This document shows, in pieces, positions 1-55,750 of a stretch of 55,750 nt of DNA. The notes below the pieces were generated by a model. It ran no database searches and had not been told where the DNA came from. It worked only from the letters and a program-made list of their open reading frames with translations. Source of the stretch: an uncultured virus (IMG/VR IMGVR_UViG_3300042914_003776) (lineage: Duplodnaviria > Heunggongvirae > Uroviricota > Caudoviricetes); IMG/VR virus record IMGVR_UViG_3300042914_003776, positions 62,001 to 117,750 of that record, one strand, 5' to 3'. Within the stretch, counting starts at the first letter, position 1, and every line of letters starts with the position of its first letter. The translations under genes were made by a program, and so were the position numbers.

Positions 1-187
1 CCATTACTTTCTCCTTACGAGGCTTTCGCCCCGCTCCTTCGCGTTTTCCGCCGTGGGTCATGTACAATCTCCGCCTTTCGTCTACTGAACGAGTTATCAC
101 CGCTATGATGCTGTTGCCCTCGCATGAGTCACAAATTGAAGTGTTGTGTGAATACAACAATGAACCGCATTTCCTACAATTTTTCAT
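1..187 (-). CDS. Small Zn-ribbon protein with HGGKREGAGRKP basic motif (runs off window edge)
   Basis: Manual translation MKNCRKCG..ICDSCE..MTHGGKREGAGRKPRKEKVM; ATGA overlap with upstream gene; no stop before position 1. Confidence 0.65.
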   Translation of the reverse strand, partial: MKNCRKCGSLLYSHNTSICDSCEGNSIIAVITRSVDERRRLYMTHGGKREGAGRKPRKEKVM

Positions 188-342
188 ATTCGACACTCGC
201 TGCATTCTCTTGGCTCTGATAATTCAACAATGTGCCACTCTGTATCGTCGTCCTCGCAATAAAGCAGGGCCGAATCGTGGTCAATAAATGGGCCAACAAA
301 ACTTAATCCGTCTACAAAATTACCATAAACAATTACAAACAT
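184..342 (-). CDS. Hypothetical 52-aa early protein
   Basis: Manual translation MFVIVYGNFVDGLSFVGPF...ECRI; tightly packed between neighbours. Confidence 0.7.
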   Translation of the reverse strand: MFVIVYGNFVDGLSFVGPFIDHDSALLYCEDDDTEWHIVELSEPRECSECRI

Positions 343-343
343 A

Positions 344-505
344 TTATTTTCCCTTTCTCAAAGCCCTTACAGTAAGTCTTAAACTAATCATTGCTAGCTC
401 TGGACTTGGCCCTTGACCGTGACAATTAGCAAACTCGCCACCTAATAAAGTAGCAACATATAAACCGTTCCAGTGACTAAATTGAATGTGTGCCTTGATA
501 TCCAT
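344..505 (-). CDS. 53-aa protein resembling the HicB antitoxin N-terminal domain
   Basis: MDIKAHIQFSHWNGLYVATLLGGEFANCHGQGPSPELAMISLRLTV; RBS AAGGAG; own promoter at 525-552. Confidence 0.6.
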   Translation of the reverse strand: MDIKAHIQFSHWNGLYVATLLGGEFANCHGQGPSPELAMISLRLTVRALRKGK

Positions 506-524
506 TGCTTTCTCCTTTACGATG

Positions 525-552
525 ATTATACACTATACATCGTCACTGTCAA
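525..552 (-). promoter_or_regulatory. Early sigma70-type promoter
   Basis: TTGACA-N16-TATAAT on minus strand. Confidence 0.85.
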
Positions 553-587
553 GGCCCGGAGTTTAATAAAAGATATATTTTTCTTTA

Positions 588-637
588 CCCCCACAAAAGA
601 GGGGGCCCGGCCGGCCCGGCGCCCCCCGTTAGAGGGG
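588..637. repeat. GC-rich repeat element copy A (CCSGG-N4-CCSGG core at 606-619)
   Basis: CCCCCACAAAAGAGGGGG overlapping CCCGG CCGG CCCGG, then CGCCCCCCGTTAGAGGGG. Confidence 0.9.
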
Positions 638-648
638 CTACCTTTTAG

Positions 649-855
649 CTAGTTCTTGGCAACGATCTTTTTGAGGCTCAGCGTTCGATAGCCACCGTTT
701 GCACAATCGACGGTGATATACTTGCCATTAGGGCCGATACCCCTCTTTTCAACTACTCCACTGATAGAACGCAAGATATTGCGATTACCATGCAAAGGAT
801 AAAAAACATCGACCACGCTACCAACTTTAGCACCGATAGCCTTAAAAGAAACCAT
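649..855 (-). CDS. Small SH3/WYL-like protein
   Basis: ORF track; C-terminal GKYITVDC..GGYRTLSLKKI resembles the WYL-domain YRxFxLxRI end. Confidence 0.55.
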   Translation of the reverse strand: MVSFKAIGAKVGSVVDVFYPLHGNRNILRSISGVVEKRGIGPNGKYITVDCANGGYRTLSLKKIVAKN

Positions 856-882
856 ATAAAATCCTTAAAAATAATAAATTTT

Positions 883-925
883 AAACAAAGGATGCGACAG
901 CTACATCTCTGCAACTGTCGCACCC
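883..925 (-). terminator. Intrinsic terminator or processing hairpin
   Basis: 16-bp stem GGGTGCGACAGTTGCA-GAGA-TGTAGCTGTCGCATCC (G-U pairs valid on minus strand) followed by TTTGTTT. Confidence 0.7.
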
Positions 926-940
926 CCACACAAAGAAAAA

Positions 941-1153
941 CTACGCTTCTTTAGTCGCAAACTTTTCAGCCTGATCTTTTCGGTAACGCTCTTGACGCTC
1001 AACAAGGGCTTTAATTAGAGAGTCTAGGCCAGACGCTCCAACCTTAACGGAAACCTCGTTATTCTCGCTGTCACGAAATTCGATTGAATCGTAATTCCAA
1101 CCAATATAGGTCGTAGAAGCATCAAACGAAACCGACTGTTTAACCTTGAGCAT
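941..1153 (-). CDS. Hypothetical early protein
   Basis: ORF track; RBS AGGAG; promoter at 1192-1219. Confidence 0.8.
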   Translation of the reverse strand: MLKVKQSVSFDASTTYIGWNYDSIEFRDSENNEVSVKVGASGLDSLIKALVERQERYRKDQAEKFATKEA

Positions 1154-1191
1154 TTTAGCTCTCCTAACAAAGAAATGAAACTTACACTCTA

Positions 1192-1219
1192 ATTATACCG
1201 GGCGATCAATGATTGTCAA
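1192..1219 (-). promoter_or_regulatory. Early sigma70-type promoter
   Basis: TTGACA-N16-TATAAT; CCSGG in spacer. Confidence 0.8.
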
Positions 1220-1475
1220 ATTTCAGACCGTTAATTTCAAAATACTTTTCGCAATCATTCTTGGAGTCAATCAAGCTCTTTCCGGTGCGTTCCTTATAAA
1301 GTTTAACACACGCAAGCTTACCACGATGCTGACCCTCATACTGTTCTTCAACAGTCAAATAAATAGAATGAGCGGTCACTTCACAAAGCTTAATAATTAA
1401 CTTTGCTACGTGAGAATCCAAGAAAGGGGCAGACTTTGCCGCATTCAATAAATGTCGGATGGCTTCAGTATTCAT
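1206..1475 (-). CDS. Protein with ribosomal L7/L12 C-terminal-like helix motif
   Basis: KLACVKLYKERTGKSLIDSKNDCE resembles bL12 KIxVIKxVRExTGLGLKEAKDLVE; RBS AGGAG. Confidence 0.6.
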   Translation of the reverse strand: MNTEAIRHLLNAAKSAPFLDSHVAKLIIKLCEVTAHSIYLTVEEQYEGQHRGKLACVKLYKERTGKSLIDSKNDCEKYFEINGLKFDNH

Positions 1476-1494
1476 TCGTTTTCTCCTTTTCCTT

Positions 1495-1522
1495 ATTATA
1501 CATTATCGACAGAGGTTGTCAA
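1495..1522 (-). promoter_or_regulatory. Early sigma70-type promoter
   Basis: TTGACA-N16-TATAAT with CGAT in spacer. Confidence 0.85.
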
Positions 1523-1585
1523 GTTCTTTAGTAAAAATCTTACAAGTTCTTTCGGCCCGGCTTGCCCTAATTAATAGGGGGAAAA

Positions 1586-1792
1586 CTAATCTTTTCCAAA
1601 ATAATCTATGCTATCGTTATTGTGCGTTAACCCCTGCTTGGTCAATTCTCCAACAACATCGATAATCCCTTGATCTCGGTAAAGTCTTACCAAATAATCC
1701 ATACAAAATTGCTTCCATTCGTCAACACTTATTTCCCCGGATAGAAACAATCTTCGAACGTCGTCATAACTTGACCTATCATTCCATTTCAT
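1586..1792 (-). CDS. Hypothetical early protein
   Basis: ORF track; upstream CACAAAGGGG leader. Confidence 0.75.
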   Translation of the reverse strand: MKWNDRSSYDDVRRLFLSGEISVDEWKQFCMDYLVRLYRDQGIIDVVGELTKQGLTHNNDSIDYFGKD

Positions 1793-1809
1793 TTCAATTC
1801 CCCTTTGTG

Positions 1810-1998
1810 CTAATAATCGTACTGACCGTGATCCCAGTCATCGCCGCCCATGTAATCCTGCCATTCCGTATATTCGTCCGGCTGGCCGTCGTCGTAGTTC
1901 TCGTTGGCTTCCTCGTCGCCCCAAAACTGGGCCATTTCCTCGGCGGTCAACTCTGGGCCATTGAATTCATCGCACTGAGACTTTTCAAAACTAGACAT
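1810..1998 (-). CDS. Highly acidic small protein (FExxQ[CS]DE family, copy 1)
   Basis: 20 D/E and 1 K in 62 aa; own promoter and ACACAAAGG leader. Confidence 0.8.
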   Translation of the reverse strand: MSSFEKSQCDEFNGPELTAEEMAQFWGDEEANENYDDGQPDEYTEWQDYMGGDDWDHGQYDY

Positions 1999-2044
1999 TT
2001 TAATTCCCCTTTGTGTCTTTTCTATTAATCCTGCTGACTGTTTT

Positions 2045-2072
2045 ATTATACAATATATATCGTCCTTGTCAA
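2045..2072 (-). promoter_or_regulatory. Early sigma70-type promoter
   Basis: TTGACA-N16-TATAAT. Confidence 0.85.
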
Positions 2073-2109
2073 GTGCCCGGCTGAAATAAAAAAAAGAATA
2101 TTTCTTTTA

Positions 2110-2174
2110 CCCCACCAAAAGAAGACCCCCCATTAGAGGGGGCCCGGCCGGCCCGGCGCCCCCCGTTAGAGGGG
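2110..2174. repeat. GC-rich repeat element copy B (core 2143-2156)
   Basis: AGAGGGGGCCCGGCCGGCCCGGCGCCCCCCGTTAGAGGGG identical to copy A. Confidence 0.9.
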
Positions 2175-2190
2175 ACTTACCCGACACCAC

Positions 2191-2952
2191 CTATCTGGAG
2201 TAGCTATGTTTGACCCCCTCCTTTTTGAGTACCTTGAGGGCCTCGGATGCTTCTGAACCCTTTGGCTGTACCCCATGAATGAGGAGCCCGAAACTGGTGT
2301 ACCTCGTTTGGGGGTTGGCTGCGTGTTCATCGGTATGATCGATTTCCAAGCCTAGTTCAGTGGCTTGTTGTACACTGAACACAACTTTAGCATATCTTAG
2401 TTTATACTGTTCGATCAAGTAGTCCTCTCGACCCCCCTCGCTGGCGGTAAGCACTAGATTCTCTGGAATGTCATACAATCGGTTAACCCAGTATCGTACA
2501 CTCTTGGTGTAAGCGTAGAATAAGCGGCCCGGGTTGTTTCGAGCAACTTCAATCCAAGCGTCAAAATAATCTTGGTTGAAAAAATCACCGGCAACATGAA
2601 TCCGGCATACCCCTAAATCGTGGGGCATGCTAGACTGAATCGATTCGATCATCTCGGCTTTAGTTAATGGCCGTAAAGCGTCGAAATTGTGCTTGCGTGA
2701 ATTGTAAACGTTAGTGTATACTACTTCCTGCGAAGCGGAAAAGCAGCGGAGTTGAGTAGCCGGGCCATCTTTGATAGAACGTTTACCGTCTTTTAAAACG
2801 GCTTTAGATAGGCAATCCTTAGCGAATGGGCAAGAGTAGCCCGAAAGCAGGTCTAATGAATAAACCTTTCGGCCATCTTCCAAGTAAACAGCGATAGATT
2901 CTACTTCGGCAAGTGCTTCGATCTTTGCATTAGCTGGGCTGAATTTTAGCAT
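2191..2952 (-). CDS. GP88-like (Cys-cluster, radical-SAM-like) phage protein
   Basis: SCPFAKDC..CFS Cys motif, RIHVAGDFF and FYAYTKS motifs recalled for the phage gene-product-88 family. Confidence 0.7.
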   Translation of the reverse strand: MLKFSPANAKIEALAEVESIAVYLEDGRKVYSLDLLSGYSCPFAKDCLSKAVLKDGKRSIKDGPATQLRCFSASQEVVYTNVYNSRKHNFDALRPLTKAEMIESIQSSMPHDLGVCRIHVAGDFFNQDYFDAWIEVARNNPGRLFYAYTKSVRYWVNRLYDIPENLVLTASEGGREDYLIEQYKLRYAKVVFSVQQATELGLEIDHTDEHAANPQTRYTSFGLLIHGVQPKGSEASEALKVLKKEGVKHSYSR

Positions 2953-2989
2953 TTCTTTGTTCCTTTGTGTTATTGCCTTTGACTCTCTT

Positions 2990-3017
2990 ATTATACAATA
3001 TCGGCAACCGTTGTCAA
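2990..3017 (-). promoter_or_regulatory. Early sigma70-type promoter
   Basis: TTGACA-N16-TATAAT with CGAT. Confidence 0.85.
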
Positions 3018-3061
3018 GTACTTAAATTTATTTTTTATAAAATCCTGCTGACCCTACTAAT

Positions 3062-3220
3062 GGGGGATACGCTAGAAAAAAACTTTTTTGATTTTATTTT
3101 ATACCCCCCGAAAGAGTGTACCCAGATAGACACCCCCCAAAAGAGGGGGCCCGGCCGGCCCGGCTCCCCCCTTCGGAGGGGTATCCCACCACAAGATACT
3201 ACCCCCGAGAGAGGAGCCCA
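3062..3220. repeat. GC-rich repeat element copy C, long form (core 3150-3163)
   Basis: AGAAAAAAACTTTTTTGATTTTATT A/T tract, several Cn-N4..6-Gn boxes, CCCGG CCGG CCCGG core. Confidence 0.9.
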
Positions 3221-3225
3221 CGCTA

Positions 3226-3387
3226 CTATACCGCTAAATCGCTGACCCCCATATCGGATTCGAACTGGTGGAAAAATGCTTCGTTGTAAATCGCCGTCGA
3301 TTCGATGAAGGCTTCCAGCTCCAAGAGGTCTTCTTGGGTTGGCATGTAAACTTCGTCGCACTGCTGAGTTTCAAAAACGTTTTCCAT
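3226..3387 (-). CDS. Acidic small protein (FExxQ[CS]DE family, copy 2)
   Basis: Start moved to MENVFETQQCDEV, downstream of promoter 3431-3458; 13 D/E, no K/R. Confidence 0.8.
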   Translation of the reverse strand: MENVFETQQCDEVYMPTQEDLLELEAFIESTAIYNEAFFHQFESDMGVSDLAV

Positions 3388-3430
3388 TTTCCTAATCCTT
3401 TGTGTGATAGAACGTCTTTCGTATGTCTCT

Positions 3431-3458
3431 ATTATACAGTATCGGCCCGGTTTGTCAA
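3431..3458 (-). promoter_or_regulatory. Early sigma70-type promoter
   Basis: TTGACA-N16-TATAAT; CGAT and CCSGG in spacer. Confidence 0.85.
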
Positions 3459-3463
3459 GAACT

Positions 3464-3658
3464 TTATTGAAAAATCTTAGTTGGAGTCCAGAATTTTGGA
3501 CGGGCTCGGAACGGCCCTTCTTCGTCACAGAACATCATTCCATCGGGGGTACAATAATTCCATTCGCTGAAAATTTCATACCACTTTACCCAACCTTCAT
3601 CGGTTAGAATTGGCGACCCGTCTTTTGGGGCGGTTTCAATTGGTTGAATATCAATCAT
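3464..3658 (-). CDS. DUF551-like small phage protein
   Basis: QPIETAPKDG start and PxxW end typical of this family. Confidence 0.75.
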   Translation of the reverse strand: MIDIQPIETAPKDGSPILTDEGWVKWYEIFSEWNYCTPDGMMFCDEEGPFRARPKFWTPTKIFQ

Positions 3659-3689
3659 TTTCCAGTCCTTTTTCTGATTAGCTGATTAT

Positions 3690-3717
3690 ATTATATCTTA
3701 TTTATCGGCCTTGTCAA
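3690..3717 (-). promoter_or_regulatory. Early sigma70-type promoter
   Basis: TTGACA-N16-TATAAT. Confidence 0.8.
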
Positions 3718-3770
3718 GACTAAAATTTAGCTGAATGCCAAAATCTCAGTGACTATTACCTATCCCAGCC

Positions 3771-3942
3771 GCCCCTATTTATAGGGGTGTTACACACCAC
3801 AAAATTCTGCTGACCCGGAAATCCTACTGACCATTCACCCAAAAACACGCCCCTATTTATAGGGGCGCTACACCCGCCCGCCCGAGGCCCCCCGCTAGGG
3901 GGGTCAGGCCACCCAGTCGGGGGGGATAGCCCCCCTTTCGAG
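3771..3942. repeat. Non-coding repeat block D
   Basis: GCCCCTATTTATAGGGG(T/C)G(T/C)TACAC at 3771-3795 and 3849-3873, two AATYCTRCTGACC boxes, further Cn/Gn boxes. Confidence 0.8.
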
Positions 3943-3946
3943 CGTA

Positions 3947-4282
3947 CTACTCAAAGTCATCGGCGTCGATTATACCTGCACGGATGGCCACCGTAACGAA
4001 CGCGATTTCCTTTCGGTATACCATATCCTCATCGATATTGTATTGGATATCGCCTTCTGGATTCGCTTCAAGCTGGGCCCGGTAATTTGCTACCCGAGCA
4101 GCTTTTTCGTTTTTGTGTTGCCTATGCTTGGAAGTCTTTTTTGTGGCGATACCTACCGCCTTTGCGAGAACACGTAGCGAACGAATACTACCGCCTTTCG
4201 AACGGTATTCAGCTTTCAAGTGCTTGTTGGCAAGGCCGAAAGCGTTTTCAATCGCAATGTCTAGTTCTGTGAAATCGTACAT
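3947..4282 (-). CDS. Hypothetical early protein with basic core
   Basis: Start moved to MYDFTELD after ACACAAAGGAAAAAAA leader. Confidence 0.8.
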   Translation of the reverse strand: MYDFTELDIAIENAFGLANKHLKAEYRSKGGSIRSLRVLAKAVGIATKKTSKHRQHKNEKAARVANYRAQLEANPEGDIQYNIDEDMVYRKEIAFVTVAIRAGIIDADDFE

Positions 4283-4321
4283 TCTTTTTTTCCTTTGTGT
4301 GAGATAAACTTGCCTTACACT

Positions 4322-4520
4322 ACTATAACCGCACAAACTAAACAAGATTAACAGGTCCGATTTATATTTTGTGATAAAAAGATTTTTTGATTGTCGTAAG
4401 TTGTTATATCGCATAGACTTGTAGCACGAAATTATTTTACAACTTTTTTTTGGCACGATATTTGCAATAGATATAGTATAAAAGGGGGGGGAATATAGAA
4501 AAAACTTTTGTGATTTTATT
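4322..4520. repeat. Duplicated regulatory block copy 1 (similar to 5774-5972)
   Basis: Shared ACTATAACCGCA..AAGATTAACAGGTC.GATTTATATTTTGT, TCGTAAGT..ACTT palindrome, TGGCACGATATTTGCA. Confidence 0.85.
4450..4466 (+). promoter_or_regulatory. Sigma54 (RpoN) -24/-12 promoter
   Basis: TTGGCACGATATTTGCA matches YTGGCACG-N4-TTGCW with GG-N10-GC spacing. Confidence 0.8.
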
Positions 4521-4733
4521 ACACACCCCCCTAACGGGTGGTCTCACATATACACCCCCCAAAAGGGGGGCCGGGAGCCCCCGGTCCCCCCGTTAGAGGG
4601 GGTATCCCCCCTTCTGGGCTACCACCCCCCCCGTTCAGGTGGTTTTCAAAAAAATAAGAAAAGTTTTTTTCTGGAGCATCCCCCGATAGAGGGACGCCCC
4701 AAAGAGTGGCTGGGTTGCCACCCCCCTTTCGGG
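4484..4733. repeat. GC-rich repeat element copy E (core CCGGG AGCC CCCGG, 4571-4584)
   Basis: Same box, core and A/T-tract architecture as copies C and F. Confidence 0.85.
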
Positions 4734-4946
4734 CTACATGGCTTGGATCTTTGCCAACCCCACTTCTAGGTTAGTTCGCAAGAGGCGGTAATCGTCTTGG
4801 CTTAAATAAACCTGTTCGCCTACTTTGTTGAAAACGTCGTGAGTTTCGTAGCTTCGTTCTTCCTCATGTTCTAAGGTAGATACCACGGTGAAACCGTTGG
4901 TTAGGTTGTACTTGATTGTTCGTTCATTTACTTTTTCTACTAGCAT
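4734..4946 (-). CDS. Hypothetical protein, paralogue of 6172..6390
   Basis: LVEKVNERTIKYNLTNGFTVVSTLEHEEERSYE aligns with LIETIANRATKFTFKTGWYVIVTTEWDDDRYYE. Confidence 0.8.
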   Translation of the reverse strand: MLVEKVNERTIKYNLTNGFTVVSTLEHEEERSYETHDVFNKVGEQVYLSQDDYRLLRTNLEVGLAKIQAM

Positions 4947-4983
4947 CTTTTTTTCCTTTGTGTTAGTTGCTTTCTACTCTTCT

Positions 4984-5011
4984 ATTATACCTTATCGGCC
5001 CGGCTTGTCAA
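4984..5011 (-). promoter_or_regulatory. Early sigma70-type promoter
   Basis: TTGACA-N16-TATAAT; CGAT and CCSGG in spacer. Confidence 0.85.
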
Positions 5012-5017
5012 GAGACT

Positions 5018-5155
5018 TTAAAGATATTTTAAAGCTTTTTCTGCTTGGGCCTTTAATCCCTCAAAAAGCTTGCGGGTTTCTTCGCTAATTCCTTCTTGCG
5101 ATAGAAGGTCTTCGATGGCTTCGATTGCTTGTTTGATGTTTTTGTAGTAGTTCAT
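5018..5155 (-). CDS. 45-aa helical protein
   Basis: Manual translation MNYYKNIKQAIEAIEDLLSQEGISEETRKLFEGLKAQAEKALKYL; ACACAAAAGGA leader. Confidence 0.75.
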   Translation of the reverse strand: MNYYKNIKQAIEAIEDLLSQEGISEETRKLFEGLKAQAEKALKYL

Positions 5156-5270
5156 TTTCTTTTTTCCTTTTGTGTTTTGTTTTGTTTTGTTTCGATCAAG
5201 CCACGTTAGGTTTGTTATCGGCTTTCGCCTTCCGTTTTAGTCAAGCAACTTTTTGTTTTTCCTTTTCTTT

Positions 5271-5298
5271 ATTATACCTTATCGGCCGGGCTTGTCAA
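5271..5298 (-). promoter_or_regulatory. Early sigma70-type promoter
   Basis: TTGACA-N16-TATAAT; CGAT and CCSGG in spacer. Confidence 0.85.
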
Positions 5299-5315
5299 GT
5301 CTCTTGAGTCATTTT

Positions 5316-5468
5316 TTAGAAGAAATTTAAAATTTCTTCCAAGGCAGCTTCTAGTTCTTCCGACATCCCCGATTCAGGGGATTCTTCGTTCACTTCTTCA
5401 ATCCAGATCAATTCGATTTCGACCGATTCTAGTACTTCATCCGATTGTAGATTCTCAAAAACGTTCAT
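5316..5468 (-). CDS. Acidic small protein (FExxQ[CS]DE family, copy 3)
   Basis: Manual translation MNVFENLQSDEVLESVEIE...EEILNFF; 16 D/E, no K/R in 50 aa. Confidence 0.8.
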   Translation of the reverse strand: MNVFENLQSDEVLESVEIELIWIEEVNEESPESGMSEELEAALEEILNFF

Positions 5469-5505
5469 TTCTTTTTTCCTTTGTGTTATTGTCTTCGTTT
5501 TCTCT

Positions 5506-8585: not shown

Positions 8586-9020
8586 CTAACTGTGACCCGG
8601 CTCTGTAGGCTTCCTTAAAAGCGGCATCATTGCTTCTTCTGGGGTACGATTACCCTTCTTAAAGTTGCAATCTCTGCATGCACACACCAGATTTTCCCAA
8701 GTGTTTCTACCGTTTCTACTTTGAGGCAAAACGTGATCTAGAGTTAAGTGTTCAGGCTTTTCACAGCCACAGTACTGACACGTATAATTGTCTCTTAAAA
8801 ATACGTTACGTTTATTAGGAACGAACCTCTTATTTCTTTTAACGTACTTCTTGACCATAACTATCTTAGGAACTTGATAGTAGTCACCCCCGGCACTTAA
8901 AATAGGGTTTGGCCAAAATTCAATAGCTTGAACTACGCCTTTTAATAAAAGGACCATTCCTTTCTGCCAGCTACTAATAGTGATGACAGAATAATCCAAA
9001 TTAAGTATAGTTGTTCTCAT
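8586..9020 (-). CDS. HNH endonuclease (McrA/HNH_5-like)
   Basis: RDNYTCQYCG..LTLDHVLPQSRNG..WENLVCACRDCNFKKG. Confidence 0.92.
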   Translation of the reverse strand: MRTTILNLDYSVITISSWQKGMVLLLKGVVQAIEFWPNPILSAGGDYYQVPKIVMVKKYVKRNKRFVPNKRNVFLRDNYTCQYCGCEKPEHLTLDHVLPQSRNGRNTWENLVCACRDCNFKKGNRTPEEAMMPLLRKPTEPGHS

Positions 9021-9084: not shown

Positions 9085-9294
9085 ATGCATAATATAATAC
9101 CGCCCGGCGAATATGTTGTCAAGGGCACTGAAGAATTAAATAAACAAGTGGCCCGGGAATTAGATATTCCTGACGAACCAAAACACACCACCGCACAGCT
9201 TTTCGAAGAAGGAGAGGAAATTGGAAGTAGACGACGAAACCCTACAGAAGATAATAAAGATAGCGAAGGCACTAGCTCCAAAGTACACATTTGA
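9085..9294 (+). CDS. Hypothetical protein overlapping the sigma gene
   Basis: Strong RBS AAGGAG; 74-nt out-of-frame overlap with 9221..9706. Confidence 0.55.
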   Translation: MHNIIPPGEYVVKGTEELNKQVARELDIPDEPKHTTAQLFEEGEEIGSRRRNPTEDNKDSEGTSSKVHI

Positions 9295-9706
9295 TTGTCA
9301 TAGTAAAGAAGATATCGAACAAGAAGCAATCATGATGGGCATCGAGGCATTGCCCCGGTACGATTCGGCTCGGCCCCTTGAAAACTTTCTTTACACCCAT
9401 ATTAGCAACCGGCTAAAAAATTTCAAGAGGGATAATTATTTTCGGCCAAATTCTGAGGGCGAACCCGAAAAGGTTCAGCAAAGTAAGAAGAATATTCTAG
9501 ATGCCGGGTCCCTAAACGAGGGGGCTATCTACTTTGAGCCCGACTTGGATGACTATCTAGACAGCCGAGAAGCTGTAGAAAAAGTCCGGGCAGCCCTGCC
9601 AGCTTCTTATCGTAAAGACTATCTGAAGCTATGTGCCGGGGTAAGAGTGTCGGCCCATAGAAAGCAGGAGATTTATTCTTTAATTAAGGAAATTTTAGAT
9701 GGCTAG
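9221..9706 (+). CDS. Phage sigma70-family sigma factor (region 2)
   Basis: EDIEQEAIMMGIEALPRYD..LENFLYTHISNRLKNFKRD; TTG start with GGAGAGG RBS. Confidence 0.85.
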   Translation: MEVDDETLQKIIKIAKALAPKYTFDCHSKEDIEQEAIMMGIEALPRYDSARPLENFLYTHISNRLKNFKRDNYFRPNSEGEPEKVQQSKKNILDAGSLNEGAIYFEPDLDDYLDSREAVEKVRAALPASYRKDYLKLCAGVRVSAHRKQEIYSLIKEILDG

Positions 9707-10493
9707 TTTAAAGACCGGGCGTTTCTCAATATCCGAAATAGGCTATATTAGGGCGAACGTAGATCGGCAAAGCGTAGACGAGATAGCCGGGCATCTTAAC
9801 CGGGACCCCATATCGGTCCATAACTGGATCGCTAAAAATGTGGGGTTTTCATCGGGCGAAAAAAGGGAGGCTGAAGTCCATCAAGAACTCAAGGGGCGAC
9901 CATATTATAAGGAACTCGCCAAGCAGTTTTCAGAAGATGAGCTGGCAATGTTTGAGTTTCATTTTAAAAAGATGTGGGCCCAGTTCAAAGATGACGTTTT
10001 CCATACCGAAGAGATGCAAATTATCGACTTGGTAAAATTAGAAATATTAATGAACCGCATACTCCGGGGCCAGCAGGAAACAGTAGAAAAGATATACCGG
10101 CTTGAGGACGAGCTTCAAGACGCAGAAAGGGCCGACGATAAAGATACGGCGATGGCTCTGGAAAGACAGATTGCCACGCTCCGGGCATCACAGGAAACGA
10201 TGTCCCGGGACTTTAAAGATTTGCAGGCCCGTAAATCTGCTTTATATAAAGATCTAAAGGGTACGCGCGAACAGCGTATTAAGGCGATTGAAGATCATCG
10301 CCAGACATTCCCAACTTTAATTACCAAAGTAATGACGGACCCTAAATACCGGCAGGATATGGCCACTTATATCGAAAAGATGCGGCTGGCTACGGAAAAA
10401 GAAAGGGCCCGGTTATCTGAGTTAATTTCCTATGAGGACAATATACCAGATAGACCATTGTTAAACTCTGACTCTACAATGAAGGACGAATAA
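9699..10493 (+). CDS. Putative terminase small subunit (N-terminal HTH, coiled coil)
   Basis: SVDEIAGHLNRDPISVHNWI HTH-like; lies upstream of the large terminase. Confidence 0.5.
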   Translation: MASLKTGRFSISEIGYIRANVDRQSVDEIAGHLNRDPISVHNWIAKNVGFSSGEKREAEVHQELKGRPYYKELAKQFSEDELAMFEFHFKKMWAQFKDDVFHTEEMQIIDLVKLEILMNRILRGQQETVEKIYRLEDELQDAERADDKDTAMALERQIATLRASQETMSRDFKDLQARKSALYKDLKGTREQRIKAIEDHRQTFPTLITKVMTDPKYRQDMATYIEKMRLATEKERARLSELISYEDNIPDRPLLNSDSTMKDE

Positions 10494-18585: not shown

Positions 18586-19593
18586 ATGGTTAAAAGCGTA
18601 GAACGTCCAAGCGACGAACTAATTGATCTATACAAAAGATCTGGTAGCGCAGACAAGTCTGTAGCTATCGAAGCACAACGCGAAATCGCAAAAGCTATCG
18701 AAACCCCTCTTCGTGAAGGCGTTTTGTTTGGCGATGTGATTGGCGGTATTTATCAGCCAATGCCTCTAGAAGCTAATGCTTCTCCAGAGTTTCCATTGGA
18801 CTTGCTAGCTCCGGGCACCGAATTGGAGCATGTGGCCTATACCAACCCGGGCCACGGTCGCATCCCTGAAAAATCAGTGGAAAGCGACTACGTTATGATT
18901 CACACCTATGGCATCACTTCATCGATTGACTTCTTGCTAAAGTATGCTCGTCAAGCAAACTGGAATGTTTTGCAACGCGCTATGCAAGTTATGGAAGCTA
19001 GCTTCGTCAAGAAGATGAACGATGACGGCTGGCACACCTTGCTAGCTGCTGCTGTGGATCGTAACATTTTGGTTTATGACGCCGATGCGGCTGCTGGTCA
19101 GTTCACCAAGAGACTTGTTTCTCTTATGAAGACCGTTATGCGCCGAAACGGTGGCGGTAATAGCGTTACAGCTAAGGGCAAGTTGACCGATCTTTATATG
19201 TCTCCAGAAGGCATTGAAGACGTTCGCAACTGGGGCGTTGATCAGTTGGACGAAGTTTCTCGTAGAGAAGTTTACGTTGCTGCTGACAACGGCGGTCCTT
19301 TGGCTAGAATCTTTGGTGTTAACTTGAACGAATTGCTCGAATTGGGCGACGGTCAAGAATATCAAGATTACTTTGTAACCGATCTAGGTGGCGCTCTTGA
19401 AGGATCTGACGTTGAATTGCTAATTGGTTTGGATAAGGCTCGTACAACCAGCTTTATCATGCCAGTTCGTGAAAACGTTCAGGTATTCGAAGACGAAACC
19501 CTACATCGTCAACAAAGACAAGGCTATTACGGTTGGGCAGAACTAGGATTCGGCGTTTTGGATAATCGCCAAATCATTGCTGGTTCTTACTAA
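18586..19593 (+). CDS. Major capsid protein (HK97-fold)
   Basis: 335 aa, strong RBS, followed by terminator; C-terminal QGYYGWAELGFGVLD. Confidence 0.88.
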   Translation: MVKSVERPSDELIDLYKRSGSADKSVAIEAQREIAKAIETPLREGVLFGDVIGGIYQPMPLEANASPEFPLDLLAPGTELEHVAYTNPGHGRIPEKSVESDYVMIHTYGITSSIDFLLKYARQANWNVLQRAMQVMEASFVKKMNDDGWHTLLAAAVDRNILVYDADAAAGQFTKRLVSLMKTVMRRNGGGNSVTAKGKLTDLYMSPEGIEDVRNWGVDQLDEVSRREVYVAADNGGPLARIFGVNLNELLELGDGQEYQDYFVTDLGGALEGSDVELLIGLDKARTTSFIMPVRENVQVFEDETLHRQQRQGYYGWAELGFGVLDNRQIIAGSY

Positions 19594-28018: not shown

Positions 28019-29317
28019 ATGACACAATTCGCACCAATCTGGAATTCTTCCGGGGTTAGCTTTAACGCAATCCGGGCCAATGTGACTGATATTGCTAGTT
28101 CGGGCACTTCTACCCTGCTGGATCTTCGTGTCAATAATTCCGGGGTTTTCTCTGTTGATAAGACGGGGGCTGTTGTCTACGGGGGTGGGACTAATTTAGG
28201 AAGCACGCTGGATGGCAAGTTGAGCCTGACCGGGGGGACTCTGACAGGAGCATTGAATGGAACAAGTGCCAATTTTAATACATCGGTTCAGGTAGGTAAC
28301 GCAATAATAAGTAGCGGTATAGTGCTTGGTGGATGGGGGATTGTCTTAGGTGGTTATAATTTTTCTGCTTATCAAATTACTACTACGGGTGGTCGATGTT
28401 ATTTATTTAACAATTTTAATGTCGCTAATAACTTTGGCTATACATTCTCTGCTAATACCGCAGGTAATGGCGCTGAAGAATTTGGGCTATACCGCAATGG
28501 GTCGCATACCTTAATGCAAGTGGGCGGAGCAAATGCCCAACGCTTCAATCTCTACGGCACTTATACCGATGGCTCCAACTATCGCAGATTATACATATCC
28601 TCTACTACCGCTGGGGCTTTTACGTTAGGAGTTGAAGGAGCGGGAACGGGTGCGAGCGGTAATACGCTGAACATCGGCCCGGGTATTACTATTGATCGTG
28701 GTGGTTTTCTCATAAGTGTTGAATCTTCGCTTATATTAGCCACCACAGTATTACAGTTAAATTCAGACACAGGTCAGTTACGAGGGAGAAATGGTCGAAT
28801 AATTCTCTCTGACAATGCAACTGGAAGCACTTTTGATTTATTGAGATTTGGTGGGATTACCAGTTCTTTCCCCGCCATTAAGCGCAATGCTGCTGCAATC
28901 AATTTTCGCCTTGCCGATGATAGTGCCGATGCCGCAATAACAGCAGGCAATGGGACTTTTTCCGGAGCTTTATCTGCTGTAACCAAGTCCTTCTTGATCG
29001 ATCACCCCACACAGCCGGGCAAGAAACTTCAGTACGGCAGTTTAGAATCGCCCTATCACGGCATCAGACTAACAGGCCGGGCCCAGCTTGTAAACGGCTC
29101 TTGCGTAGTCGAATTGCCGGGCTATGTATCGGCCCTAGTCCATGACGATATTAATATTCAGCTTACTCCGGTGGGTAGAAATGTGGTCTGGGTCGAGGGG
29201 CACGATTTAGAGTCTAATACATTTACGGCCCGGGGCGATCAGGACGGCATGTTCTACTGGTCATTTACCGCCGTAAGAAAAGATATTGAGCCGCTTGAGG
29301 TAGAGCCGTGGGCATAA
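28019..29317 (+). CDS. Fibre protein 3 with C-terminal intramolecular chaperone-like domain
   Basis: KSFLIDHP..KKLQYGSLESP..IQLTP C-terminus. Confidence 0.8.
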   Translation: MTQFAPIWNSSGVSFNAIRANVTDIASSGTSTLLDLRVNNSGVFSVDKTGAVVYGGGTNLGSTLDGKLSLTGGTLTGALNGTSANFNTSVQVGNAIISSGIVLGGWGIVLGGYNFSAYQITTTGGRCYLFNNFNVANNFGYTFSANTAGNGAEEFGLYRNGSHTLMQVGGANAQRFNLYGTYTDGSNYRRLYISSTTAGAFTLGVEGAGTGASGNTLNIGPGITIDRGGFLISVESSLILATTVLQLNSDTGQLRGRNGRIILSDNATGSTFDLLRFGGITSSFPAIKRNAAAINFRLADDSADAAITAGNGTFSGALSAVTKSFLIDHPTQPGKKLQYGSLESPYHGIRLTGRAQLVNGSCVVELPGYVSALVHDDINIQLTPVGRNVVWVEGHDLESNTFTARGDQDGMFYWSFTAVRKDIEPLEVEPWA

Positions 29318-31465: not shown

Positions 31466-33757
31466 ATGCCACAAGATATATTAATTACGCCAACAAGCGG
31501 CGAGCCACAAATCCTTTTTAGAGGTAGTGGGGCCCTAGATACCGCAATACAACTTAATGTACTTTCGTCTTATCAAAGTGCATCTCGGTCCGGCACGGCC
31601 CTAGTCTTTGAAGGTACAGAGGGGCAGTTGTTCGCTATTACGGACAACCTATCTAGTGGCGTTATTTTTGCCGTTGGAGATGTGACGGGGCTTCCTCTTG
31701 TTAAAGTAGACGCTAGTGGGGATGTAACACTAGCCGAGTATGGTCGTTTTGTGGGTGTAGGCACGGGCGTACCCAGATTTCACCTAGATGTCCGGGGCAC
31801 TGGAAACTTCAGTACTGCCGTTGTGACCAATAATGCCACCGTTAACGGAAACTTGGGCGTATCAAACAGTAGCCCGGGCGCTAAGGCCCATATTAATACT
31901 TTAGTAAGCACAAATAAGGGCTTAATAGTTCAGGGGGCCGCTGCTCAATCGGCCAACTTGCAGGAGTGGCAGAATTCGGCCGGGGCCGTTATTGCTTCTA
32001 TCGATAAGGACGGGGATATCACGGCTCCTACCGGGACCTTTAACTTTGTCCAGCTAACTAGCACATTGCCCCGACAGTCCGGGCTGTTATTTTTAGATAC
32101 CGGGGGCTTCCTTAATACCTCCCCCAACCTAATATACAATTATTCGAACTTGGCCTCGCCCAAATTGGCGTTCCGGGCCTCTGGTACTACAACCCCTGAT
32201 ATTTCTCTTAATATACTAACGACCGCAAGTGGGTCCACTTCGGGCGTACAAACCCTGTCTTTTGAAGGGTCGGCCGGGCAGTTATTCTCTATCACTGACG
32301 TATTAAACAGTGGTACTATCTTCGGGGTTAACGATATATCCGGGCTACCTATATTAGAGGCTGATGCCACCGGGCTTGTATCTCTGGCTCGCTTTGGTAC
32401 GGGTATTGAGGCGTATAGGGCTATAAATGCGAGAGAGGGTGTAAACACTTCTTTAATTTCGTCAACCGGAAACGTGAGACTAAATTCTACATTATTAACG
32501 CTTAGCGGTACAACATCTTCTTTTCCAGCAATTAAACGCAATGCTGCTGCAATCAATTTTCGCCTTGCCGATGATAGCGGAGATGCAGAAATTACGGCTG
32601 GTACAGGCAGATTTAGTGGTGCGATTTATAATGTAGGGCCAATATATAATACGAGTAGTGCAAGTAGCAATGTTTACGCTATGTATGCTAGTCAGTATGG
32701 CTATGCATTTATGCGTTTTGATAATTGGAAAACAATTACTTTCAATGCTGGTGAGTCTACTGCCTACGAGCATTCAATAAGTATTGCAGGCTGGAGATTA
32801 AATACAAATAGCAATGGAAGCGCTTATTTACATACTGATGCCGCTAATATATTTGCACAACGCAATAGCACCAACGCCCAAACGCTTCGACTCTACGGCA
32901 CTTATACCGATGCCTCCAACTACCGCAGACTCTACCTATCCAGCACTACAGCAGGTGCGTTTACTCTCGGCGTAGAAGGAGCAGGGACGGGGGCGAGTGG
33001 GAATACGCTGAATTTTTCAGTTACTAGTGGAGTTAACCAATTAGCGATTTTGCCTGACGAGATACGGGCTAGTAGTTCCGGTGGCAATAACTTAATCAGA
33101 GTAAACCAAAGTGCTGGTAATTCTGCTATTGCTATTGGTCATAATTCAAGTCTAGTCGCACAGGCTACTATTGTTGGTGTAGGATCAACCGGAGATGCAT
33201 TTATGAGCATAATTGCCATAGGTACATCTAACAATGTCACCGGTGGGGCTTCTGTATGTATAGGCCGTGAAAGCTCAGTAACGGGCCATGAGTCTATAGG
33301 TCTGGGACGGGGGATAAATCTAGCTCGTTCTTGTACTTTGGGATATTCTATTGGTTCTGGCAACTATAATGATACAACAACCATAGCGAGTATCGTAACA
33401 ACAGATAACACTCCCACAACATTAAAATGCAGATGGTATGGAGGAACAAATAACTTTATTATTCCGTCTGGAAGAGCGTTGTTTTTTGTAGCACATATTT
33501 GTGGCATTAAATCAGACGGTTCTGCTGTTGCAAGTTATATAAGAAGAGGATGCATAAAAAATATAGGTGGTACTACTTCTTTAGTTGGAACTATTGAAAC
33601 CATTGGAACAGATTACGAAGACAATGCGGCAACCGATGTTGCCATTACAGCAGACAATACCAATGATGCTTTGCAAATTGATGTTACCGGTATTACAGGC
33701 GAAACTTGGAGATGGCAGGCTTCTGTAAAATCGGTTGAAATGATCTATGGAACCTAG
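31466..33757 (+). CDS. Fibre protein 4 (mosaic of modules shared with fibres 1-3)
   Basis: Shared protein and DNA blocks, see findings. Confidence 0.82.
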   Translation: MPQDILITPTSGEPQILFRGSGALDTAIQLNVLSSYQSASRSGTALVFEGTEGQLFAITDNLSSGVIFAVGDVTGLPLVKVDASGDVTLAEYGRFVGVGTGVPRFHLDVRGTGNFSTAVVTNNATVNGNLGVSNSSPGAKAHINTLVSTNKGLIVQGAAAQSANLQEWQNSAGAVIASIDKDGDITAPTGTFNFVQLTSTLPRQSGLLFLDTGGFLNTSPNLIYNYSNLASPKLAFRASGTTTPDISLNILTTASGSTSGVQTLSFEGSAGQLFSITDVLNSGTIFGVNDISGLPILEADATGLVSLARFGTGIEAYRAINAREGVNTSLISSTGNVRLNSTLLTLSGTTSSFPAIKRNAAAINFRLADDSGDAEITAGTGRFSGAIYNVGPIYNTSSASSNVYAMYASQYGYAFMRFDNWKTITFNAGESTAYEHSISIAGWRLNTNSNGSAYLHTDAANIFAQRNSTNAQTLRLYGTYTDASNYRRLYLSSTTAGAFTLGVEGAGTGASGNTLNFSVTSGVNQLAILPDEIRASSSGGNNLIRVNQSAGNSAIAIGHNSSLVAQATIVGVGSTGDAFMSIIAIGTSNNVTGGASVCIGRESSVTGHESIGLGRGINLARSCTLGYSIGSGNYNDTTTIASIVTTDNTPTTLKCRWYGGTNNFIIPSGRALFFVAHICGIKSDGSAVASYIRRGCIKNIGGTTSLVGTIETIGTDYEDNAATDVAITADNTNDALQIDVTGITGETWRWQASVKSVEMIYGT

Positions 33758-52487: not shown

Positions 52488-52490
52488 TAG

Positions 52491-55400
52491 ATGACTAATA
52501 CAAAAGAATCATTAGGACTGCACACGATATCAGACGGGCCCGTTGGAGGAATATATTCTAGGACGGGCCAATCAAACCTCGTTCTTCAGGCTTCTTCGGT
52601 TGGAACGCCTCATTTTACCAACTGGGATGCTGGGCTAACCTCGTTAGAAAATACCACTAAAGAACGATTTGAAGCTAGAACAGCCACTCGGTTTTTGGAC
52701 GATTATTTGTCCGAAAAAGGCAATTATAAAATAAGATTTGGGGCAAAAGATATTAAGATTGCAGACAATCTGGCGGCTGTATCTTATCCAGAGTACACCG
52801 ATATTAACAAGTCGATTGTCAAAATATTTGATACTAATCTTTTAACATATCACACTGGAATTAAAGTAAACTCATACGATTACACATGTATTGATTGGTC
52901 TTTAGTTTATAATGATAGCGTATTAATGCCCCAAATTAATTTGGATACTTTGCTTAATCCATATGCCGGGTTTCCTAGTAGCACAAATAATCGCTTTGAT
53001 GCCGACCTAGATGGCCTATATATTATTATAGAATATACTGGCTATTATACCCTAGCAGACGCCGACCCATGTGTTTTAGCGGCCCCTTATTATAATTCTG
53101 TTTTAGATGGCAAAAGACAAATACTAAAATATAATTCGAATGAAAACTCTTTGCTCGCTGGGGAATATACTATTGTAGACTTTAGTGCAGGTAGCCCAAC
53201 TTCTAAAAAGATGGTATTGGCTAGGATTGGTCACACATTAGATATTGGCCCAACAGAATTCTTTTCTGCAAATCTAGCAACTTTGGATGTCGGCGGATTT
53301 GGATTTATTGGATGTAATATTTATTTACTTCGTTATAAACCCGTTATAGAATGTGGAAAAGTAGATCTTTATACTAAAAAAAGAGGACAGATCACTTCTT
53401 ATGATTCTAATGGGAAGTTGGTTTGTCTAAAGCACAATTTACAAAATGGCGATATCATAAAAATATCTGGGGCAAAAAATTCTAAAATTAATGGAATAAG
53501 ATATGTTCAGGTTGTTAATGATTCGACATTTATTATTTATTCTACTGCGGACCTAACTGTAAGAGTTGATTCTTATTACGAAGGACTACCGGAATGGACT
53601 GCGTGTGGCAATATTTATGATTCAGAATCTCAGGCTTGGGACTATTTAGGCACATTAACATCCCCAGATGGTAGGAATGGATATTGTTTTGAGCATCAAG
53701 AATCAATATCAAATGTTGGTTTTCATAGTTTTTATAAAACAAATACGCTGGGCGATAATTTTAATAATGTTTCTACTTTGGACCAATTACTAGAATTAGA
53801 TTTTAGTATGACTAGCGGCATACTTACTAACTTTTACAATTTTCCTATTTTTTCATATGGTTCGCCAACACGGGCACCGTCTGTAGACGCTTTCTTAAAT
53901 TCTATAAATTTTGATCAGGGATTATTAAAAAGTACGAATGTAGCTAATGAATATGCTCCATCTCCGCTAGATAGCGTTTGGGCCGGGCCATATAATTACC
54001 TTAATTCTTTTAAATTTGGTCACTCTATAGACTTAGTTAAATATCAAAATAAATATGTATTAGCCGTAGGAGAAAGGGGCTTATCTTCTATACCAAATCT
54101 AAACTTTTCTTTTCAGCTTCCGGTAAGCCCTATATATGGTAAAGTATTTTTATTTAATATTTATATGGATTCTAATGGACAGATAGAAAATTTGTCTTAT
54201 CCAGATAGACCTGTAGAATTTGACTCTAAGTATTATGCTTATACTAATGATTCTAGTATTGCCAAGCCGCCATATTTAACGCCCGGTAATAATGTTTCTG
54301 GATTCTATAGGTCTCTTTCTCACTTTACACCAATAGATTTTGCCGATAAACAATATAATTATTACTACGGAACACTGACGCACACAAATGGCTCTGTTAC
54401 AGGGGCCACTGACTCAGAATACTTCTTTGATTATTGTAATGATGAAATGCTTGGGGATTCTAATCTTTATAGAAGAATAGAATATCTGAATGGTATGGAC
54501 TACTGGTATGGCTCTATGGTTTATTCTTTATTAGATTTAGATAAAAATGGAGCACTGCCAGAAGACCCAGTTGGGCTAGACTATAATGCTGGCGGCTGTA
54601 GGGATGCATATTTTACCAATATTAGCATACCAAAATTTTTATCAAATACTAGTTTTGTTTACAGTAATCCCCCTATATATCACCGGGGAGGATTTAACGT
54701 TTATCCATACGTAGATAACTTTGGCAAGGCGGTTGCATTAGATGTATCAGGCAATGATATTTATCTTTTATCTTCTTCTAAAACTAAACCAATTGTAGAA
54801 AGACCAAATTATAGCGATGGTCTACCATCAGAAATAGAAATAGGCGATGGCCCCGGCTCTTGCTCTAATGATAATTTAAATAAAACTCATTGTGGATATA
54901 TTCACGTTTTTAAGAACGGAATAAAGATTCAAAAAATATATGAAACAGAAGCCTATACTTTACCTAGCGGCAGACACTATGGATTCTATTACAAGGCTGA
55001 TAAATTTGCTTCATCTATGTATGCTAAAGGCGGCGAGCTTGTTTTTGGCCAAACAAAACCTATTGATTATCATGATTCCGCATCTAATCAGCTAGAAACA
55101 TCTAAAATTTTTATATACAAAAGAAGTGGCGATCTTTATTATAAAATAAATACTATACAAAACTCTAAAAATAATAACTTTTCTTTTATTAATGATTTTT
55201 CTTTTCCGGATCAGAAAGAATTCTTTTTAAGAGACGGAAACGAGTTTATGGTATTTAGCGGTGGCATATTATCAGGCACAGATATTAGCGGCTTATATTA
55301 TTATCCGCCGGATAGATTTGGTAATTATTTTAAATACAACGGAAACATTTTAGTTGCTAACGCTTTCGATATTTATAATGAGGACGGGGAGTATCATGCT

Positions 55401-55750
55401 TCTAATAATGACATTTTCACCGGAAGATCTAATGAGTTTAATCGACCAATAGATTATTTACATGTATACGAAAAAAATAGTAACGGATGGGATTTTGTAA
55501 CCAAGATAGCCCCGGCTTTTGACGAATTTGATGCATCTTATTCTTATGCAGACATACTTGGTCCAAATATTTATCATTCTATTAGAACATTGGGTAATAG
55601 AAATTATTCTAATAGCTCGTTTAATTCTAGAACTTGGGATATTGATTTAACTGGATGCTATGATTTAATTAATGATAGAATCTTGTTAAAAGATCCATTA
55701 AGCTATTCTGTTTTTCAAAAAGAACCAGATTATATTAATTCTTCCAGAAT
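52491..55750 (+). CDS. Large tail/baseplate protein with FG-GAP-like propeller repeats (truncated by window end)
   Basis: ATG at 52491; frame spot-checked (FKFGHSIDL..VLAVGE, NFGKAVALD) and open at the end; not every codon verified. Confidence 0.75.
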   Translation, partial: MTNTKESLGLHTISDGPVGGIYSRTGQSNLVLQASSVGTPHFTNWDAGLTSLENTTKERFEARTATRFLDDYLSEKGNYKIRFGAKDIKIADNLAAVSYPEYTDINKSIVKIFDTNLLTYHTGIKVNSYDYTCIDWSLVYNDSVLMPQINLDTLLNPYAGFPSSTNNRFDADLDGLYIIIEYTGYYTLADADPCVLAAPYYNSVLDGKRQILKYNSNENSLLAGEYTIVDFSAGSPTSKKMVLARIGHTLDIGPTEFFSANLATLDVGGFGFIGCNIYLLRYKPVIECGKVDLYTKKRGQITSYDSNGKLVCLKHNLQNGDIIKISGAKNSKINGIRYVQVVNDSTFIIYSTADLTVRVDSYYEGLPEWTACGNIYDSESQAWDYLGTLTSPDGRNGYCFEHQESISNVGFHSFYKTNTLGDNFNNVSTLDQLLELDFSMTSGILTNFYNFPIFSYGSPTRAPSVDAFLNSINFDQGLLKSTNVANEYAPSPLDSVWAGPYNYLNSFKFGHSIDLVKYQNKYVLAVGERGLSSIPNLNFSFQLPVSPIYGKVFLFNIYMDSNGQIENLSYPDRPVEFDSKYYAYTNDSSIAKPPYLTPGNNVSGFYRSLSHFTPIDFADKQYNYYYGTLTHTNGSVTGATDSEYFFDYCNDEMLGDSNLYRRIEYLNGMDYWYGSMVYSLLDLDKNGALPEDPVGLDYNAGGCRDAYFTNISIPKFLSNTSFVYSNPPIYHRGGFNVYPYVDNFGKAVALDVSGNDIYLLSSSKTKPIVERPNYSDGLPSEIEIGDGPGSCSNDNLNKTHCGYIHVFKNGIKIQKIYETEAYTLPSGRHYGFYYKADKFASSMYAKGGELVFGQTKPIDYHDSASNQLETSKIFIYKRSGDLYYKINTIQNSKNNNFSFINDFSFPDQKEFFLRDGNEFMVFSGGILSGTDISGLYYYPPDRFGNYFKYNGNILVANAFDIYNEDGEYHASNNDIFTGRSNEFNRPIDYLHVYEKNSNGWDFVTKIAPAFDEFDASYSYADILGPNIYHSIRTLGNRNYSNSSFNSRTWDIDLTGCYDLINDRILLKDPLSYSVFQKEPDYINSSR

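Follow-up and report, generated by a model that had tools for sequence, protein, structure and literature searches.

Why does one stretch of phage DNA hold so many copies of CCSGG (CCCGG or CCGGG) and not a single CCWGG (CCAGG or CCTGG)? The question is raised by the window analyzed here, a stretch of 55,750 nucleotides that forms the last 55.75 kb of an uncultured virus record of 117,750 bases from a large lake phage (IMG/VR IMGVR_UViG_3300042914_003776, hereafter G000). The window contains 174 CCSGG sites (81 CCCGG and 93 CCGGG), compared with 37.1 expected from base composition, and 0 CCWGG sites, compared with 54.9; the whole record holds 267 and 0, respectively. Our analysis revealed that the favored word is not CCSGG but the asymmetric, non-palindromic hexamer GCCCGG, and that the pattern is best explained by two superimposed processes, the purging of CCWGG and the favoring of GCCCGG. 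For the latter, the best explanation, to which we assign a probability of roughly 0.4, is a small and equal per-site advantage that would come from a replication or recombination protein of the phage.

We shuffled the codons of the 111 coding sequences (CDSs) of G000 while preserving amino acids and codon usage. The observed 210 CCSGG sites compare with 61.3 in the shuffles (z ~20), and the observed 0 CCWGG sites with 86.9. The CCSGG excess reported in a preliminary description of this stretch therefore exceeds chance. Its rough expectation of one site per 1.3 kb becomes one per 1.5 kb when computed from base composition. The three dense stretches that it had put at about 13, 9, and 10 sites hold 15, 11, and 11, and CCWGG, which it had not noticed, is indeed missing from the window on an exhaustive count. 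The distribution is as follows:

1..55750, no strand assigned: dispersed GCCCGG/CCGGGC, making up 94 of the 174 CCSGG sites, with CCWGG absent (counts).
9100..10420, no strand assigned: dense stretch over a sigma-factor-like open reading frame (ORF) and a 264-amino-acid (aa) ORF, 15 CCSGG.
28040..29240, plus strand: dense stretch in a 432-aa ORF, 11 CCSGG, 6 of them the hexamer.
31790..32375, plus strand: dense stretch in a 763-aa ORF, 11 CCSGG, 7 of them the hexamer.

Two codon observations of the same description also held over the full data. Pro-Gly is coded by CCC or CCG followed by GG at 64 of 64 pairs in the CDSs of G000 and at 38 of 38 in the plus-strand CDSs of the window, including five LamG YPGSG motifs, three TPGEF motifs, and both sites of the major-capsid-like gene (the sixth LamG gene has no Pro-Gly). 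With CCWGG absent, no other choice is left, so the pattern does not argue for positive selection. Similarly, Arg is coded by CGG in 27 of 68 cases after an NCC codon, compared with 92 of 1304 Arg codons overall.

A search with the major-capsid-like gene recovered a complete genome, G001 (158,520 bases, with terminal repeats), which is 100% identical to G000 throughout their overlap, so that the complete genome was open to analysis:

18586..19593, plus strand: major-capsid-like gene, the query used to fetch relatives; both of its Pro-Gly pairs are coded by the hexamer (18811 and 18847).

In codon shuffles of G001, the base 5′ of CCCGG sets the excess: 158 sites are preceded by G, compared with 21.6 expected (7.3-fold), 51 by C (15.7; 3.2-fold), 26 by A (19.3; 1.35-fold), and 21 by T (21.8; 0.96-fold). 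An avoidance model, comprising codon usage and 29 avoided or depleted words, raised the expectation for GCCCGG only to 33.9. When we fitted a maximum-entropy codon model to the coding DNA of G001 (141 of 144 ORFs, three being dropped as low-complexity), GCCCGG was the first term added. The fitted weights were x9.3 for GCCCGG, x2.6 for GCCC, x2.4 for GCCG, and x3.6 for CCCCGG; the 30 terms selected did not include generic CCSGG. Several of the negative terms resemble, in our reading, Shine-Dalgarno avoidance.

The excess grows with word length (GCC 1.18-fold, GCCC 1.74-fold, GCCCG 2.9-fold, hexamer 7.3-fold), and the enrichment of the hexamer extends to each of the six frames. It also extends to the 23 kb of non-coding DNA (28 compared with 2.4 in shuffles), partly within a repeat element. 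Overall, G001 holds 196 hexamers in 158.5 kb, and the excess is steady at 5–9-fold in all eight 20-kb blocks, whose GC content ranges from 33% to 41%. The hexamer fills 15–49% of the permissive amino-acid contexts in G001, compared with 0–16% in the complete relative G002. Its two orientations are about equally used in G000 (77 and 85), and it is sharply bounded, with weak flanks (G at −1 and C at +1). When each position in turn was allowed all four bases, all six of the resulting families remained 2.4–3.3-fold over the shuffles, so single-base conversion cannot supply the excess. We also considered a bipartite site or A-tract phasing and found neither within 40 bases of 209 sites.

CCWGG loss accounts for part of the picture. 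Codon usage alone predicts 70 CCSGG in the coding DNA of G001, the avoidance model 139, and 256 are observed, so that about 37% of the excess can be put down to avoidance. CCWGG occurs no more than once in 103 of 188 loci from other phages, where CCSGG is raised 1.68-fold (1183 compared with 704) and the hexamer only 1.47-fold. The displacement itself is directly observed; its agent may be a restriction-type pressure that would purge CCWGG from the genome, force Pro-Gly into CCS-GG, and raise CCSGG about 1.7-fold. G001 is also devoid, or nearly devoid, of many 6-base palindromes and a few asymmetric words, which is a strong restriction-avoidance signature.

The relatives revealed how the word behaves over time. 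G011 (locus L387), found through its 68%-identical primase, holds 57 hexamers, compared with 8 expected. Across 56.6 kb of aligned orthologues (72% nucleotide identity), G001 and G011 have 58 and 50 sites, of which 16 are shared, compared with about 10.6 expected from occupancy, at synonymous sites that are not quite saturated. At 17 of the 58 sites, the partner's peptide forbids the word, and at a given Pro-Gly the two genomes can carry the word in opposite orientations. Density is thus kept while site positions turn over. The capsid and primase searches found no relatives between 72% and 100% nucleotide identity, and among the 40 that were listed of 529 population differences from four sequencing runs, most came from distant relatives and were uninformative.

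Leaving G011 aside, the hexamer reached z of at least 3 in only 1 of the 188 loci. Searching 156 loci for any word enriched across frames, we found 40 with z of at least 4, while z of at least 6 was confined to this phage, G011, L253, and L346 (G006). G006 favors CGCCGT (166 compared with 30, six of six frames, fitted weight x10.9); it does not avoid CCWGG, has no GCGC in its coding DNA, and carries a predicted 294-aa C5 methyltransferase gene. L253 favors CGCCC (35 compared with 9.7) and GCCCG. A GCC(S) core therefore recurs in the phage family, as GCCCGG here, CGCCGT in G006, and CGCCC in L253. A weak CGCCC excess is also found in 85 of 119 capsid loci (1.26-fold) and 20 of 23 near DnaE loci (1.58-fold), compared with 1.05-fold in 59 mixed phage loci, and is not seen in host-like DNA. 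The top words of L217, L257, L261, L266, L290, L294, and L316 were set aside as codon-pair or avoidance effects, since they are mostly confined to one or two frames.

The host is probably a planctomycete, judging from genes that the phage appears to have captured. Two DUF1501 genes and one DUF1559 prepilin-like gene of planctomycete origin (L091:19632-L092:3656) now have 36–39% GC, and each contains the hexamer. The DUF1559 protein is 68–69% identical to proteins in four of five genomes of one genus, one record of which is titled Pirellulaceae, and the next best match among 401 family genomes is 62%. In the candidate host G016 (Pirellulaceae), we counted 39 hexamers, compared with 53.7 expected (0.7-fold), in 128 kb of coding DNA, about 2% of that candidate genome. 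In 36 pooled Pirellulales-like loci there were 1179, compared with 1208 (1.0-fold), and the range over 79 host-like loci was 0.3–1.5-fold. The top words of G016 (loci L422-L441, L117, L392, L416, L445) are instead (G)AAGCGG at about 2-fold, which we take to resemble Firmicute Chi words; the same words reach only 1.2–1.5-fold in this phage. G016 has one PF00145 gene, presumably Dnmt2-like by its motifs. Separately, L144, a Planctomycetota locus of 66% GC, is free of CCWGG over 19 kb, which sets it apart from the remaining 78 host-like loci.

We propose that a compact word GCC(C/G), extended to GCCCGG, would enjoy a small advantage at each site. This advantage would be the same at any place and in either orientation, shifting the odds of codon choice by a factor of about e^2 to e^3, with new sites continually forming and old ones being lost throughout the genome. 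A constant, additive, orientation-free advantage of this kind is expected of either weak selection or biased conversion, which composition does not distinguish. Since the core is shared, the flanks are lineage-specific, and the word is not favored in candidate hosts, a conserved phage protein is suggested as the reader, probably one of the phage's own DNA-handling proteins.

Among these, the DnaG primase (G001, L090:8821-9897) is the leading and most economical candidate, though a tentative one. It has Toprim and DNAG_N domains, with primase structures as its top matches, and the hexamer is common to G001 and G011, whose primases are 68% identical; among 31 primases, each represented by 5–23 kb of DNA, the hexamer is patchy. 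Aquifex DnaG initiates on CCC, GCC, and CGC (PMC2532735), and the T7 primase also reads a 3′-flank dinucleotide (PMC12839067). The phage primase would start on a C/G-only triplet within the word (GCC or CCC), its zinc-binding domain would read the 3′ flank, and both strands would act as lagging template in recombination-dependent replication. Initiation sites described for Aquifex (PMC2532735) and T7 (a pentanucleotide with a 3′ flank; PMC12839067) resemble the word in their C/G-only triplet core and graded flanks but differ in that the word has no lagging-strand polarity. Our literature search on this point listed no genome in which primase sites are over-represented 7-fold throughout. Some other phage protein, such as a junction or nicking nuclease or an agent of biased heteroduplex conversion, is a more doubtful reader. 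The HNH nuclease of the window (8586..9020, minus strand) was rejected in this role: it occurs in 11 of 27 records, including the L352-L368 group, which shows no excess.

Several points weigh against a reader encoded by the phage, and the protein named is a candidate only. The hexamer has no strand polarity (sense 89 compared with 12.5, 7.1-fold; antisense 70 compared with 10.7, 6.5-fold), whereas simple theta replication would be expected to leave primase sites polarized; an orientation runs test was null (z = −0.05), with 10-kb bins somewhat uneven. Its spacing is exponential (Kolmogorov–Smirnov p = 0.81) and gives no hint that a certain density is needed. Even a genome of 38% GC has no shortage of C/G triplets, and why selection would be required is not self-evident. 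On the primase tree, the strong signal has a patchy distribution: it is missing from the sister lineage G002, and CGCCGT is found in both L342 and G006, which are not sisters. A host factor would account for this equally well. Finally, many of the comparison loci are near-duplicates or close kin, and the host-side counts, that of G016 included, rest on stretches of genomes.

The serious rival is a host factor that reads the word, either as a Chi-like signal calming a nuclease of the AddAB/RecBCD type or through a HIP1-type repair ratchet directed by a host methyltransferase (PMC3784561, PMC4390886, PMC5861425). Chi is described as over-represented in phages without recombinases or RecBCD inhibitors (PMC3784561); the 196 sites in 158.5 kb are close to the one per 1000 nucleotides of the HIP model, and the G preceding C agrees with that model's G-meC rule (PMC4390886). 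The patchy signal and the C5 methyltransferase of G006 are also compatible with it. Against this stand the host counts, which show no enrichment in G016 or the 79 host-like loci, the different top words of G016, and the character of its sole PF00145 gene. Vsr was absent from five of five host-like metagenome-assembled genomes, which are incomplete, and a ratchet should drain the one-off neighbors of its word, most of which are at or above expectation. We regard a host factor as unlikely, though it is the alternative that fares best.

Chi has a median observed-to-expected ratio of 2.5–3 in phage genomes (PMC3784561). Like Chi, which is thought to act in DNA end processing, the hexamer is a non-palindromic word over-represented in a phage; unlike Chi, which is enriched in the host, it is not enriched in any host-like sequence counted, it has no polarity, and the phage has its own RecA and exonuclease. 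HIP1 is a short, GC-rich, iterated word of cyanobacteria (PMC4390886, PMC5861425). The hexamer resembles HIP1 and the alternate HIPs in being short and GC-rich, in occurring in all frames (six of six) at about one per kb, in the prime importance of the first-position G, and in that a function of single sites is not evident from these accounts (PMC4390886, PMC5861425). It differs in being non-palindromic, in belonging to the phage and not to the candidate host, in the lack of a cognate methyltransferase in the genome, and in its random spacing and fast turnover, with positions not conserved. The word thus resembles Chi or HIP1 as a dispersed favored word, yet fails the tested defining features of each. 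Our literature search, which did not extend to most subscription journals, found no paper on the GCCCGG word or on the bias of this phage family.

A further possibility is that nothing reads the word, and that the context-dependent mutation spectrum of the phage DnaE/DnaQ, together with its repair glycosylases, slows the decay of GCC-centered words. The excess is indeed graded, symmetric, and random in position, and the phage owns a polymerase and Ogg-like and pyrimidine-dimer glycosylases. We nonetheless consider this improbable: a 5–7-fold excess would need nearly all six positions to be protected or favored together, the word is sharply bounded, and the partner genomes are two to four changes away from it at many sites, transversions included.

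Pure displacement, in which GCCCGG would simply be what is left once CCWGG and many other restriction sites are avoided, is largely refuted and very unlikely. It explains its share of the CCSGG excess, the top words that several other phages (L290, L294, and L316, for example) show in particular frames, and the roughly 2–3.5-fold over-use of TCCCGG by CCWGG-avoiding relatives. However, the hexamer stays far above the avoidance model and above its level in the 103 CCWGG-avoiding loci, and it is enriched in non-coding DNA and in frames without Pro-Gly. The preliminary description had named CCWGG avoidance, should it explain the excess entirely, as fatal to its own reading; about a third of the excess is such displacement, and the remainder is unexplained by avoidance.

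That reading invoked a methylase specific for CCSGG, the type of site recognized by NciI and BcnI, acting with Vsr-type repair, or else a reader of CCSGG. CCSGG is the top 5-mer in every null, and an excess beyond avoidance makes some DNA reader a reasonable supposition. However, the A- and T-flanked sites lie at or below the 1.68-fold avoidance baseline, so the enriched word is asymmetric. The search that the preliminary description had suggested also found no methylase: C5 and N4/N6 methyltransferases (PF00145, PF01555) had no match in G000 or in five records including the complete G001. Vsr had none in G000, searched with the PF03852 profile, or in the 47 + 114 (161) scanned ORFs, with ORFs below 75 aa and parts at 20-kb block edges incompletely scanned. 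Very short patch (VSP) repair by Dcm/Vsr raises a C-containing word in all frames, as is seen here, but VSP bias acts at one base and drains the T-neighbors. In this phage there is no single-base bias and the C-to-T neighbors are not depleted (CTCGG 1.2-fold, CCCAG 1.1-fold), only the forbidden CCWGG being missing. A methylase or methylase-linked repair is thus unsupported, and a reader of CCSGG as such is highly improbable.

The missing CCWGG is also associated with a putative nuclease encoded outside the window:

L090:6488-6985 of G001: orphan restriction-like nuclease, 165 aa, between the exonuclease and DnaQ genes.

The ORF matches no Pfam or PHROG family and has 376 homologues. Its structural model (predicted local distance difference test score, 87) suggests a PD-(D/E)XK fold, with NhoI as the best solved match and top in both PDB searches. 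The match is modest (template modeling score 0.48 at a root-mean-square deviation of 8.0; Z 8.7 at a deviation of 4.8 across 129 residues); DpnI and Hjc score Z 7.2–7.4, which puts NhoI only 1.3 Z above DpnI. Close viral models are labeled restriction endonuclease, and D59, D69, and K71 are invariant in 32 of 32 aligned homologues, giving a D-x-K active site. The BisI/NhoI family has a PD-QXK active site and GCNGC specificity (PMC11347163). The predicted protein would resemble these orphan endonucleases in its small PD-(D/E)XK fold and in having no partner methyltransferase, as that source describes them (PMC11347163), but it has D-x-K and not Q-x-K, and its carriers lack CCWGG and not GCNGC.

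Among 75 new loci carrying this ORF, the 74 with enough coding DNA were all free of CCWGG (0 compared with 780). In all 101 carrier loci (1.11 Mb), we found two CCWGG sites; L484, an outlier of 29% identity, holds both. Three carrier gene-content groups outside this phage family (8, 5, and 2 loci) have none. The CCWGG-free background is 6 of 50 mixed phages and 69 of 89 loci in this phage family. Two observations count against a causal link: G002 avoids CCWGG without the gene, and CTCGAG is also absent from all 101 carrier loci. A shared host group could therefore explain both the nuclease and the CCWGG loss, and could confound their association. If the link is causal, this would be a restriction enzyme whose sole self-protection is the absence of its own site. 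As a reader of the hexamer, the ORF looked specific at first (2 of 27 records), but the 74 carriers hold 160 hexamers, compared with 83 expected, and L467 holds 3, compared with 1.5, making it an insufficient cause.

The hexamer also occurs in repeat elements and promoters near the start of the window. The features found there are:

589..637, no strand assigned: GC-rich intergenic repeat element with two tandem hexamers between two stems (repeat family analysis).
2126-2174, 3133-3181, and 6006-6054, no strand assigned: further copies of this element (repeat family analysis).
4553-4601, no strand assigned: degenerate copy (repeat family analysis).
3431..3458, minus strand: sigma-70-type promoter, 12/12 consensus match, with the hexamer in its 16-nucleotide spacer (promoter scan).
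4984-5011 and 5271-5298: sigma-70-type promoters likewise holding the hexamer in the spacer (promoter scan).

Four more copies of the element lie upstream of the window. This stem-loop element is repeated in the early region amid strong promoters with 16-nucleotide spacers (also L094:7374-19883), and G002 has a different element, in 10 copies, in the same setting. We rejected the element as the source of the favored word, as the word of G006 shows no such element among its 8 non-coding sites, and the hexamer as a fixed promoter operator, as it lies in the spacer of only 3 of 11 perfect promoters (window 1-9300).

The window encodes terminase, capsid-like, LamG, and tape-measure genes. Outside it, G001 encodes DnaE, DnaQ, DnaB, DnaG, SSB, RecA, an exonuclease, nucleotide enzymes, many glycosyltransferases, and the two DUF1501 genes and one DUF1559 gene; the phage also codes for an ERCC4 nuclease and the Ogg-like and pyrimidine-dimer glycosylases. 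DnaE is split by an intein-like region with a separate NUMOD3/DUF559 endonuclease ORF (L090:871-5557), and the PhoH gene bears a LAGLIDADG insert. A GDP-mannose dehydratase, the glycosyltransferases, and three small-molecule methyltransferases probably have a role in surface glycans (window 10738-11820; L089:4737-20000; L091:9232-13361), and one glycosyltransferase gives a short match to the TcdA/TcdB catalytic-domain family. Six LamG-domain genes form two triplets (window 23219-25328 and 29308-31438), across which related-strain contigs join, suggesting shuffling. A run of small ORFs is built on a 12-base repeat with units of the Gln-Val-Trp-Asn type (G000 ~44.5–50.4 kb; L001-L003 region).

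Chi and HIP1, the words with which we compared GCCCGG, are cellular signals, Chi being one that phages take over from their hosts. In the present case, the word is maintained at an about 5–7-fold excess by a phage clade and is not favored by the candidate host. In a broader and rather speculative scenario, which we hold to be somewhat unlikely, a family of large planctomycete phages would write its own GCC(S)-centered word independently of the host, through a replication or recombination protein of the phage and with flanks that drift from lineage to lineage, and would carry an orphan nuclease that cuts host CCWGG while sparing the phage, which lacks the site. Since the advantage of a single site could be very small, the word is not necessarily an essential signal. 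As distant relatives favor related but different words, they would form a natural series tying protein specificity to genome-wide bias, a connection still open for HIP1, and a 158-kb genome has few candidate genes. In this way, composition alone could reveal the specificity of phage enzymes that have yet to be studied.

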